This document shows positions 13,268-26,184 of a stretch of 64,000 bases of DNA, in pieces. A program made the position numbers and the translations under genes. The stretch is from Escherichia coli (lineage in GTDB: Bacteria > Pseudomonadota > Gammaproteobacteria > Enterobacterales > Enterobacteriaceae), in the NCBI RefSeq assembly GCF_001677475.2, contig NZ_CP015229.1; one strand, 5' to 3'. Below the pieces are notes generated by a model that saw nothing but the letters and a program-made list of their open reading frames with translations, was not told the origin of the DNA and made no database searches. The number at the start of each line of letters is the position of its first letter. Position 1 is the stretch's first letter.

Positions 13268-13352
13268 ATTCGGGCGGATAAGGCGTTTTTGCCTCATCCG
13301 CCGTTCTGTGCACAATGCCTGATGCGACGCTGGCGCGTCTTATCATGCCTAC
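13268..13352. repeat. REP/BIME-type palindromic repeats downstream of proX
   Basis: Two palindromic units incl. gcctgatgcgacgctggcgcgtcttatcatgcctaca. Confidence 0.6.
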
Positions 13353-22005: not shown

Positions 22006-22079
22006 GAAAGACGCGCATTTGTTATCATCATCCCTGAATTCAGAGATGAAATTTTGGCCACTCACGAGTGGCCTTTTTC
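22006..22079 (+). ncRNA. micA: MicA (SraD) small regulatory RNA
   Basis: Recognised sequence gaaagacgcgcatttgttatcatcatccctgaattcagagatgaaattttggccactcacgagtggcctttttc with terminal hairpin; between luxS and gshA on the opposite strand. Confidence 0.75.
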
Positions 22080-24707: not shown

Positions 24708-24917
24708 GGTCTTCTCGCAAGTCGAAAAATATGACGCTACTTTAGCGTAATTGCTTGATTTTGTCGCTGATGGCGAAGGAGAAGAAAATTCAGGAAATAG
24801 ATAAAGTAGTTATTTAGAAATGAGATATTTTTGAAGGAAATTTGTGGGAGAAGATGGTGCCTGCGGTTAGTACTGCTACCTCTTCGATACCTTCATTGCT
24901 GAAGATTACGGAGAATA

Positions 24918-24994
24918 TGGTGCATCCGGGAGGATTCGAACCTCCGACCGCTCGGTTCGTAGCCGAGTACTCTATCCAGCTGAGCTACGGATGC
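24918..24994 (-). tRNA. argQ: tRNA-Arg (ACG), copy 1
   Basis: Reverse complement gives a 77-nt tRNA ending in CCA with recognised tRNA-Arg sequence; symbol assigned by position. Confidence 0.9.
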
Positions 24995-25096
24995 ATCGGG
25001 AAAACTTATTTTACTGCTGATATTGATACCGCTACTAAAGCCATATCAAATAAGAAAATCCATCTTAACCATCATCACTGATGATTACGGAGAATA

Positions 25097-25173
25097 TGGT
25101 GCATCCGGGAGGATTCGAACCTCCGACCGCTCGGTTCGTAGCCGAGTACTCTATCCAGCTGAGCTACGGATGC
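25097..25173 (-). tRNA. argZ: tRNA-Arg (ACG), copy 2
   Basis: Identical 77-nt repeat. Confidence 0.9.
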
Positions 25174-25235
25174 ATCGGGAAATTTATTTTACTGCTGATA
25201 TTGATACCGCTACTAAAGCCATATCAAGTAAGAGA

Positions 25236-25312
25236 TGGTGCATCCGGGAGGATTCGAACCTCCGACCGCTCGGTTCGTAGCCGAGTACTCTATCCAGCTG
25301 AGCTACGGATGC
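25236..25312 (-). tRNA. argY: tRNA-Arg (ACG), copy 3
   Basis: Identical 77-nt repeat. Confidence 0.9.
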
Positions 25313-25374
25313 ATCGGGAAACTTACTTTACTGCAGATTTTTTGATACCGCTACTAAAGCCGTATCAAGTAAGA

Positions 25375-25395
25375 GATGGTGCATCCGGGAGGATT
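25375..25395 (-). pseudogene. Truncated tRNA-Arg fragment (3'-terminal ~21 nt only)
   Basis: gatggtgcatccgggaggatt matches the 3' end of the tRNA-Arg repeat, then diverges into spacer-like sequence. Confidence 0.6.
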
Positions 25396-25511
25396 ACTCG
25401 CCTTGCGGCTCGCCCTTCGGGCCGTTGCTAAAGCAACGTTATCCTTCCTGGTGCTTGCGGCTAGTACCGCCACCTCTTCCACATCTTCATCGCTGAAGAT
25501 TACGGATAATA

Positions 25512-25588
25512 TGGTGCATCCGGGAGGATTCGAACCTCCGACCGCTCGGTTCGTAGCCGAGTACTCTATCCAGCTGAGCTACGGATGC
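25512..25588 (-). tRNA. argV: tRNA-Arg (ACG), copy 4
   Basis: Identical 77-nt repeat. Confidence 0.9.
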
Positions 25589-25591
25589 AAA

Positions 25592-25684
25592 TGGCGGTGA
25601 GGCGGGGATTCGAACCCCGGATGCAGCTTTTGACCGCATACTCCCTTAGCAGGGGAGCGCCTTCAGCCTCTCGGCCACCTCACC
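25592..25684 (-). tRNA. serV: tRNA-Ser (GCU)
   Basis: 93-nt long-variable-arm tRNA; reverse complement matches the tRNA-Ser(GCU) sequence as recalled. Confidence 0.88.
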
Positions 25685-25998
25685 ACACGCCTCTTACGAG
25701 TGCTTCGAAGAACTTGTTTATCGCTCATCGTCGCTGCGTGGCGCACATATTACTTTCTGAGACTTATAAGTCAAACAATTTTTCCCACACTTTTATCGTT
25801 TGCACACTTCACGCTCAATTAGTCTGTAAAAACGTCAAAAAGAGTGTTTTATCAACAGAAAAACGGAGGTCTGTCAGATAGCAGTAATGCAAAAAAATGG
25901 AGACTTAAGTTGAATGAACGGGAGTAAAGCGAAAAGACAATGGAGTGAAGAAGAAATTTGAGGGTGCGTCTCACCGATAAAGATGAGACGCGGAAAGA

Positions 25999-26184
25999 TT
26001 AGTAACTGGACTGCTGGGATTTTTCAGCCTGGATACGCTGGTAGATCTCTTCACGGTGAACAGAAACTTCCTTCGGGGCATTTACGCCAATACGTACCTG
26101 GTTGCCCTTTACCCCTAAAACTGTCACGGTGACCTCATCCCCAATCATGAGGGTCTCACCAACTCGACGAGTCAGAATCAGCAT
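25999..26184 (-). CDS. csrA: Carbon storage regulator CsrA
   Basis: 61-aa [64 protein letters not shown] recognised in full. Confidence 0.97.

Follow-up and report, generated by a model that had tools for sequence, protein, structure and literature searches.

What is the 3' end of a tRNA-Arg gene doing on its own in the spacer of a tandem tRNA array? The question is raised by a 64,000-nucleotide (nt) stretch of an Escherichia coli chromosome (contig NZ_CP015229.1; 'the window', from whose first letter all positions are counted unless another locus is named), in which the serV-arg operon holds one tRNA-Ser and four tRNA-Arg genes and in which a copy of the last 19 nt of tRNA-Arg, AATCCTCCCGGATGCACCA, stands as an orphan between the first two tRNA-Arg genes. 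An earlier note on this DNA had read the fragment as an isolated truncation, the scar of unequal recombination or deletion within the array. We find that it is the 3' strand of the conserved closing helix of a structured 135-nt module (25377–25511, minus strand) that resembles RtT RNA (Rfam family RF00391). We are nearly certain that this spacer element is a conserved RtT-like element and not a recent scar, and we think it likely that the arg module is related, in diverged and shortened form, to the tyrT operon repeats from which rtT RNA arises, the fragment being the end of a ~135-nt RtT-like element. The module would then be a fixed, structured part of the serV-arg operon, and neither a lineage-specific rearrangement nor the trace of something mobile.

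The orphan tRNA-Arg 3' end belongs to a widespread module

The 19-mer occurs five times in the window, four times in the tRNA-Arg genes and once as the orphan at 25377–25395 on the minus strand; the number of matches expected by chance, from dinucleotide-preserving shuffles, is 0.00. It comprises 3 nt of the T-loop, the 3' strands of the T-stem and of the acceptor stem, and the terminal ACCA. The 21-nt match described earlier (25375–25395) is thus a genuine copy of the tRNA-Arg 3' end, of which 19 nt are tRNA-derived and two bases are downstream spacer: identity reaches 20 nt (25376–25395) if the base after CCA is counted, and the 21st base (25375) is spacer, common only to the argY copy. The earlier note was correct in deriving the fragment from a tRNA-Arg copy, in placing it where a further repeat unit would sit and in describing spacer-like sequence after it. 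The 64 nt that follow (25313–25376) are homologous to the 62-nt argY-argZ spacer, the 3' flank of the module being the same as that of a true tRNA-Arg. At its other end the module begins immediately downstream of the CCA of tRNA-Arg copy 1, on the same strand. The RefSeq annotation calls nothing in this tRNA-Arg spacer, and neither ARAGORN nor the Rfam tRNA model finds a cloverleaf in 25313–25511.

A search of 5,426 complete E. coli genomes, with presence defined as coverage of at least 80% of the 135-nt module, found it in 5,352 (98.6%); an arg-specific 70-nt core is present in 1–5 copies per genome (median 2 in the 4,178 genomes scorable by megablast). E. coli K-12, with tRNA-Arg spacers of 198, 62 and 198 nt, has three module units: the orphan 19-mer lies in both long spacers, a near-exact copy follows the last tRNA, and the 116 nt upstream of the orphan are present as well. 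Strain EF7-18-58 (spacers of 197, 198 and 198 nt) has four orphans and four units; the spacers in the window measure 199, 62 and 102 nt. Being shared by K-12 and by E. coli at large, the fragment is no recent scar. It also reaches beyond the species. Salmonella enterica subsp. houtenae carries the module, 88% identical, at the syntenic csrA / tRNA-Ser / tRNA-Arg / yqaB locus, and at least 19 distinct arg units, 132–137 nt long, were collected from about 12 genera of Enterobacterales (among them Escherichia, Citrobacter, Enterobacter, Kosakonia, Phytobacter, Silvania, Brenneria, Hafnia and a further Enterobacteriaceae lineage), while the Yersinia arg unit is a long form of 162 nt. The module of the window itself has no identical copy among the 5,426 genomes (best identity 96.3%). 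The alaS-recA flank of the window shares 99.1% identity with the best-matching E. coli genomes, from which we take the strain to be an ordinary E. coli whose array has a minority haplotype.

The module is predicted to fold into a helix that encloses three hairpins

Listed from 5' to 3', the predicted parts of the module are as follows.

25478–25507, minus strand: leader hairpin, core CUUCAGCGAUGAAG (single-sequence fold)
25457–25470, minus strand: hairpin 2, GCGG-UACUAG-CCGC (consensus helix 1)
25441–25454, minus strand: 5' strand of the closing helix, GCACCAGGAAGGAU, pairing with the tRNA-derived 19-mer
25396–25440, minus strand: RtT-homologous core of three hairpins (alignment to the RtT consensus, blastn)
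25423–25438, minus strand: core hairpin CGUUGC-UUUA-GCAACG
25412–25422, minus strand: core hairpin GCCC-GAA-GGGC
25400–25409, minus strand: core hairpin GCC-GCAA-GGC
25377–25395, minus strand: tRNA-derived 19-mer, 3' strand of the closing helix (exact tRNA-Arg 3' end)

In the closing helix (13 bp), GCACC-A-GGGAGGAU pairs with AUCCUCCCGG-A-UGC of the tRNA-derived tail, the partner of the GGGAGGAU strand being AUCCUCCC; the helix encloses the three-hairpin junction and leaves a free ACCA 3' end. As modelled, it would look like the acceptor and T stems of a tRNA stacked on each other, with ACCA at the end and the three hairpins in the place of the T-loop. Single-sequence folding gave one architecture for the window and K-12 copies, with free energies of −52.8 kcal/mol (z = −3.4) for the former and −60.3 kcal/mol (z = −5.4) for the latter. 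In the 5' strand of this helix, the only complete module of the window differs from most E. coli units, with GGAAGGAT in place of GGGAGGAT; GGAAGGAT is the state of the tyrT units.

RNAalifold recovered the same structure from an alignment of the 19 arg units listed. Overall, 96.8% of the cells of this alignment that should pair do so, versus 28–52% when the 3' partners are slid by 1–3 columns. Compensatory changes were seen in 7 pairs, a number reached by 2 of 500 shuffles, and the covariation score (0.132 versus 0.067) was reached by none of 500. Covariation is visible in hairpin 2, in which all four pairs have both-sided changes in some sequences (90.8% of cells paired), and in the last core hairpin (C-G in 11 units, G-C in 7 and A-U in 1); helices 3 and 4 are partly invariant because the search pattern fixed 20 nt of the core. 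The leader hairpin falls outside the consensus because the alignment is poor there; in other genera the leader has a different sequence which, by eye, is also capable of forming a hairpin.

The closing helix is paired in 96.3% of cells. Because it is mostly invariant, its support comes from conservation, together with thermodynamics: when one sequence per genus is compared, its non-tRNA strand is 90% identical between genera versus 51% for the adjoining leader. Hafnia provides a natural variant, its tRNA-Arg having a different T stem which the Hafnia unit follows on both strands (GGGAAGAU/AUCUUCCU).

The arg module as a probable diverged relative of RtT RNA

The gathering score of RF00391 is 45 bits. 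In a permissive Rfam scan of 3 kb, 25377–25506 (minus strand) matched positions 1–130 of the model with 29.3 bits (E = 0.0062); scanned alone, the spacer (221 nt) scored 32.5 bits (E = 7.6e-5), with the match clipped at the 5' side to model positions 47–130. The K-12 arg units gave 31.0, 29.2 and 22.8 bits and those of Enterobacter 36.7–37.8 bits (E = 4e-4 to 8e-4). Rfam and RefSeq annotation miss the arg unit because such scores lie under the gathering threshold; the long arg unit of Yersinia nurmii exceeds it, at 70.8 bits. The shared core, AACGUUGC-loop-GCAACGGCCCGAAGGGCGAG...GAGUAAU, is aligned to the RtT consensus with high posterior probability, and in blastn the module matches an annotated Salmonella RtT RNA (E = 4e-7); the similarity therefore resides in the core and not just in the tRNA-derived tail.

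The tyrT locus of K-12 contains four RtT units scoring 133–138 bits. These end in the last 19 nt of tRNA-Tyr, AATCCTTCCCCCACCACCA, with the same T-loop breakpoint as the arg orphan. The end of the annotated rttR (locus L005, 1567–1737) coincides exactly with the CCA of the first unit (1567–1698), which makes the tRNA-like end of this tyrT unit a true RNA 3' end. In the opposite direction, a covariance model built from arg units alone (R1; its calibration was shortened and its E-values are rough) detected all four tyrT units (22.5–28.5 bits, E = 1e-4 to 4e-3). It also detected the Yersinia unit (69.4 bits), a Pro unit (51.3 bits), Lys units (44–50 bits) and units of the 5S type (28.3 bits, see below); the window module scores 149.9 bits, by construction.

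In sum, the arg unit has a significant match over the whole RtT model, follows a tRNA immediately on its 3' side, in tandem and on one strand with it, carries a cognate 3' tail, the core hairpins and the outer helix, and is detected reciprocally; its score is below the gathering score, and it lacks the internal segment made up of the T-stem 5' strand, UUCGA and CUCGAGCG...CGAGAG. The short arg unit is probably an unannotated, diverged member of the RtT family; we did not find it described in the literature searched, and older literature may contain it. RtT RNA and the tyrT repeats are already known, and the Lys and Pro units fall within the Rfam threshold. According to one paper (PMC4986893), RtT RNAs are released from 'many other tRNA operons', and in Pasteurellaceae, RtT homologues near tRNA-Asn and tRNA-Lys genes were detected on Northern blots. 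A 2010 paper ties rtT-like sequences to BIME (bacterial interspersed mosaic element) repeats and attenuators; we saw no REP (repetitive extragenic palindromic) or BIME sequence in the arg module, although no dedicated search was made.

The leader contains a short open reading frame (ORF; 25483–25509, minus strand; ATGAAGATGTGGAAGAGGTGGCGGTACTAG, MKMWKRWRY) that recalls the tiny tpr ORF annotated within rttR. It was rejected as a gene, as it is not kept in other genera and has no visible ribosome-binding site.

RtT-like units generally end in copies of the stable RNA upstream

One genome per species was scanned for the core GCAACGRCCCGAAGGGYGAR, as one exact pattern, which returned at least 120 loci; 166 matches were listed and are the basis of the counts in this section. 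They come mostly from Enterobacterales, with some from Orbales, Vibrionales and Oceanospirillales and a few probable chance matches in unrelated phyla. Their 18–19-nt 3' tails derive from tRNA-Tyr (52), tRNA-Lys (42), tRNA-Arg (19), tRNA-Pro (5) and tRNA-Glu (2), and for 106 of the tRNA-tailed units a tRNA gene with the same 3' end lies in the same locus. A further 13 cores are followed by ...AACTGCCAGGCAT, the 3' end of 5S rRNA.

In long-form units the core is also accompanied by the other strand of the T-stem. The cognate T-stem 5' strand plus TTCGA stands next to the core in 36 of the 36 Tyr units listed, versus 1 of 36 for a non-cognate one, and in all four Pro units; the signal is weaker for Lys (15 of 35). 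The Yersinia nurmii arg unit, which carries the internal TTCGA segment, is made up of 23 nt that are identical to its tRNA-Arg, followed by an insertion of 64 nt and by the last 18 nt of the tRNA. From the Tyr and Pro segments and the make-up of the Yersinia unit we deduce that a long-form unit copies part of the RNA upstream of it and has a structured insertion within the T-loop. That long-form RtT-like units are partial copies of the neighbouring stable RNA with an insertion near the 3' end is, as far as sequence comparison goes, well supported. The E. coli arg unit appears to be the long form minus ~30 nt, its missing TTCGA segment fitting an internal deletion. For E. coli the description as an 'interrupted tRNA copy' is extrapolated from the Yersinia form, because the similarity of the E. 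coli 5' half to tRNA-Arg is not significant: local alignment of the 5' part of the module with the first 58 nt of tRNA-Arg was no better than shuffles (298–981 of 1000 as good), and global alignment was marginal (52–75 of 1000 as good).

Two ideas were given up. The 5' half of the module had been seen by eye as a degenerate tRNA-Arg, with collinear TCCGTA, TCAGC and an anticodon-arm-like hairpin, and this was dropped for E. coli. Covariation of the closing helix across all unit types was clear for Tyr, acceptable against shuffles for Arg and 5S, and weak for Lys and Pro; it was kept for arg and tyr only.

Some of the units are worth recording individually. In a Pantoea sp. (L008, 1405–2501), six RtT units scoring 70–86 bits alternate with three tRNA-Lys genes. 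Lys and Pro units contain, within the repeat, a terminator-like hairpin and a T run after the tRNA tail, in which the arg units differ from them. The 5S-tailed units have a tail ...ATAAACTGCCAGGCAT and a 5' strand GGCAGTT; one of them (L012, 99–221) lies between a 5S gene and tRNA-Thr, and an E. coli unit of this type is at L052, 7812–7856. The interval between the rrnB terminators T1 and T2 presumably resembles the 5S-tailed design. In Marinobacterium and Amphritea (L027 and L030), RtT-like cores lie 121 nt past tRNA-Arg(CCG) and have tails, AATCCCTCCAGC..., with no match of 10 nt or more to a local tRNA 3' end; either they have decayed, perhaps, or the tail rule may have exceptions.

A tentative and rather unlikely generalization is that all RtT-like units form one class, in which a conserved ~45–65-nt three-hairpin module sits within a partial copy of the upstream stable RNA, mimics the 'top half' of a tRNA (acceptor stem, T stem and CCA) and has spread among stable-RNA operons. 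In copies of tRNA-Tyr, -Lys, -Arg, -Pro and -Glu the site of insertion may be the T-loop, and in copies of 5S rRNA a point ~12 nt before the 3' end; the spread may have occurred by recombination through GGTTCGA / AATCC, T-loop sequences that are almost universal, or through an insertion that was once mobile; the mimics may be kept because they engage processing enzymes, the CCA-adding enzyme or RelA on the ribosome; and the E. coli arg unit may be the minimal natural version.

Array layout and deletion alleles in the window

The array was laid out as follows, in the direction of transcription.

25747–25774, minus strand: promoter-like site TTGACT-16-TAATAT upstream of serV (consensus scan only), candidate start of the serV-arg transcription unit that holds the module
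25592–25684, minus strand: tRNA-Ser(GCT), first gene of the operon, serV in K-12 (ARAGORN; Rfam tRNA model, 56.8 bits)
25512–25588, minus strand: tRNA-Arg(ACG) copy 1, argV position (ARAGORN); the module begins directly after its CCA
25377–25511, minus strand: RtT-like module, 135 nt, with the reported fragment as its 3' end (RF00391 match, fold, distribution in E. coli)
25313–25376, minus strand: 64-nt spacer between the module and tRNA-Arg copy 2 (repeat family D2), homologous to the argY-argZ spacer
25236–25312, minus strand: tRNA-Arg(ACG) copy 2, argY position (ARAGORN)
25174–25235, minus strand: 62-nt argY-argZ spacer, preceding copy 3
25097–25173, minus strand: tRNA-Arg(ACG) copy 3, argZ position (ARAGORN)
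24995–25096, minus strand: 102-nt spacer allele with only the leader hairpin of the module (comparison with K-12)
24918–24994, minus strand: tRNA-Arg(ACG) copy 4, argQ position (ARAGORN)
24855–24917, minus strand: truncated module after the last tRNA, with leader and hairpin 2, ending ...GCAGGCACCA (comparison with K-12)
24734–24748: weak terminator-like hairpin; the module sits between the promoter-like site and this hairpin

ARAGORN and sequence comparison bore out the earlier count of four identical 77-nt tRNA-Arg genes and one tRNA-Ser. The array had been placed upstream of csrA; in the direction of transcription it is downstream of that gene (25999–26184, minus strand). The module lies inside the putative transcription unit that runs from the promoter-like site (25747–25774) to the terminator-like hairpin (24734–24748).

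The window holds two deletion alleles. The spacer at 24995–25096 has 102 nt versus 198 nt with a full module in K-12, and its leader hairpin shows a compensatory change, CAUCAGUGAUGAUG for CUUCAGCAAUGAAG (CATCAGTGATGATG versus CTTCAGCAATGAAG). A 57-mer specific to this allele occurs in 653 of the 5,426 genomes (12%), including O157:H7 strains. After the last tRNA-Arg, the sequence jumps from ...GCAGGCACCA to TCTTCTCC at 24855, like a ~70-nt deletion between two GCACCA repeats of K-12. What is missing is the core and the 19-mer, and K-12 and EF7-18-58 have the complete unit. This junction is present in 189–208 of the 5,426 genomes (about 3.5–3.8%), and the truncated module still scores 35.7 bits with R1. 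The repeated units would offer homology for unequal recombination, by which module number and spacer lengths would vary from strain to strain; the polymorphism of the array is explained by the repeated modules.

Elsewhere in the window, the only other Rfam calls at gathering threshold were the small RNA (sRNA) MicA (22006–22077, plus strand, 83.9 bits) and naRNA4, which is REP-derived (13272–13349, plus strand, 69.7 bits), both ordinary for E. coli. Sub-threshold matches to Plastid-ycf2 lie antisense to every tRNA-Arg gene (24920–25588, plus strand; 33.4 bits versus a gathering score of 65.7); these and other antisense sub-threshold Rfam matches were rejected as artefacts of tRNA-like sequence in the model.

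Alternative explanations

Several observations weigh against the module being a conserved RtT-like element and have to be set beside the evidence given above. (i) At its gathering threshold, the RtT model is not called anywhere in the window, the E. coli arg unit reaching 29–32 bits versus the 45 required, and the ~30–40-nt segment of the long form is present in 0 of the 12 short arg units listed. (ii) The closing helix carries one A.C mismatch in the window, where the module has GGAAGGAU and K-12 has GGGAGGAU; 6 of its 13 pairs are invariant, only one pair shows a compensatory change, and the complementarity of its 5' strand may have been inherited from the T stem of the tRNA and not selected. 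(iii) The structure was derived from the same sequences on which it was tested, their effective number is 1.41, and the search pattern fixed 20 nt of the core, within helices 3 and 4. (iv) Having been found with one exact pattern and drawn from the matches listed, the sample of units is biased, and the control across unit types is clear only for Tyr, G.U pairs blurring the distinction of Arg from Tyr and Pro. (v) Single modules can be dispensed with: of the three units of K-12, two are missing from the window, and 74 E. coli genomes fall below 80% coverage.

The alternative that survives these data best, which we nevertheless hold to be improbable, is that the module is a neutral relic, an ancient interrupted tRNA-Arg pseudogene that hitch-hikes in an essential operon and is subject to gene conversion, its RNA being functionless and its structure inherited from the tRNA and from a GC-rich insertion. 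Dispensable modules (two missing in the window and 1–5 copies elsewhere), a tolerated A.C mismatch, little covariation in the closing helix and a 19-mer identical to the neighbouring genes, as gene conversion would give, all agree with such an origin. The role of rtT RNA has, moreover, never been firmly established: papers that cite Bosl & Kersten 1991 give an effect on the stringent response or on amino-acid starvation only as 'likely' or 'implicated'. However, hairpins 2 and 5 covary, and gene conversion with tRNA genes cannot account for a non-tRNA partner strand that is 90% conserved next to a leader conserved at 51%. Nor would a relic be expected to keep its length at 132–137 nt across genera, or to recur in the same design behind five tRNA species and 5S rRNA.

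Much less credible is the recent scar proposed in the earlier note, that is, a tRNA-Arg unit truncated by unequal recombination or deletion in this lineage so as to leave a 19–21-nt stump. The recombination part of that proposal holds for the array, which is recombinogenic: module number and spacer lengths vary among E. coli (199/62/102 in the window, 198/62/198 in K-12, 197/198/198 in EF7-18-58), and two real deletion alleles are present in the window itself. These deletions, though, removed modules and did not make the orphan at 25377–25395. The note had also said that the same fragment in every E. coli including K-12 would make it a fixed feature of the spacer; K-12 has two exact orphans and one near-exact one. 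Together with its 116 upstream nt, the orphan is shared by K-12, 98.6% of E. coli, the syntenic Salmonella locus and about 12 genera, and the supposed stump is base-paired to a conserved partner strand.

The 3' ends of tRNA genes are often integrase targets and are duplicated on integration, so that the orphan might be an attachment-site remnant left by a lost phage or island targeting tRNA-Arg; the earlier note had named such sites in passing, adding that nothing mobile is adjacent. We give this almost no weight. Gene and repeat are separated by 116 nt with no integrase, ORF of that kind or island; blastn against a phage collection returned no real phage record matching the module; and the repeat is structured, stands in tandem behind successive tRNAs and has a counterpart of the same design with the 3' end of 5S rRNA. 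Three of the nominal 'phage' matches were Salmonella chromosome contigs of 0.5–0.7 Mb (AGRM01000002.1, AFYI01000003.1 and AGRM01000003.1), and a fourth, an unannotated 7,356-nt record of Salmonella phage S.Kent 1-2-1, matched 41% of the module (its core) and is probably host DNA. A chance match of a short sequence can be dismissed, the 19-mer being exact, with 0.00 expected in shuffles, and its position conserved across species.

Proposed processing and possible role

If the conserved RtT-like element is what it appears to be, the arg unit would be co-transcribed with the tRNAs of the operon and, by analogy with rtT RNA, cut out by the tRNA-processing machinery as a discrete RNA ending in ...GCACCA. 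An endonuclease would cut after the CCA, followed by 3' trimming, and RNase P could possibly cut on the 5' side of the acceptor-like helix to yield a 78-nt species (25377–25454). Excision by this machinery is suggested because the unit carries an authentic tRNA 3' end and has behind it the same spacer that follows a true tRNA-Arg; we put the chances that the unit is excised as a discrete RNA through its tRNA-like end at about even. That it has a physiological role of any kind seems unlikely; for rtT RNA, the one role put forward in the literature is modulation of the stringent response, as given in papers that cite the original proposal. One speculative possibility is that the product mimics the acceptor/T-stem half of a tRNA toward tRNA-binding factors.

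The arg unit keeps only the closing helix and the three hairpins, which points to these as the conserved parts of the RtT design, and the rule, kept across tRNA types, that a unit closes with the 3' end of the RNA upstream of it suggests that the tRNA-like end matters, probably for excision. As a minimal variant in 1–5 copies per genome, it offers a practical handle on the role of rtT RNA, a question that dates from 1991. The strain-to-strain variability that the repeated units bring to tRNA-Arg arrays is relevant to tRNA gene counts and to engineering of the locus.

Comparison with known systems

Attachment-site repeats of integrases share with the arg unit a duplicated tRNA 3' end beside an intact tRNA gene, but the arg unit has no island, integrase or phage match. 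Also comparable are 3'ETS-leuZ and the internal spacer of metZWV, functional spacer RNAs of tRNA operons that act as sRNA sponges. Like these, the arg unit would be a processing by-product of a tRNA operon with a possible role of its own; their action is by pairing with Hfq-bound sRNAs, and they are not tRNA-like repeats.

The 5S-tailed units at the distal end of rrn operons share the core, after which comes a copy of the upstream RNA's 3' end (...AACUGCCAGGCAU), and have a 5' strand, GGCAGUU, complementary to the 5S copy. They differ in that their tail comes from 5S rRNA; with Rfam they are sub-threshold (30.3 bits).

The nearest described counterpart is the RtT RNA with the 178-bp repeats of the E. 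coli tyrT operon (rttR in K-12). Both kinds of unit lie directly 3' of a tRNA, within its operon and on the same strand, and arg units, too, recur in tandem behind one tRNA after another, the last included. Both have the CGUUGC-loop-GCAACG / CCCGAAGGG / GAGUAAU core with a third short hairpin, both have an outer helix formed by a purine-rich 5' strand and a tRNA-derived 3' end, and the covariance models of each detect the units of the other. The arg unit differs in its tail, which is from tRNA-Arg and not tRNA-Tyr, in the absence of the ~30–40-nt segment (T-stem 5' strand, TTCGA and the CUCGAGCG...CGAGAG hairpin) and in its own 57-nt leader with two hairpins.

Of the same family design are the long-form units behind tRNA-Lys, tRNA-Pro and, in Yersinia, tRNA-Arg, in Enterobacterales and Orbales. 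Their tails match the local tRNA, as does that of the E. coli arg unit. They score 70–91 bits, over the Rfam threshold, whereas the E. coli arg unit is internally shortened. It is the Yersinia arg unit that ties the short form of E. coli to the RtT family.

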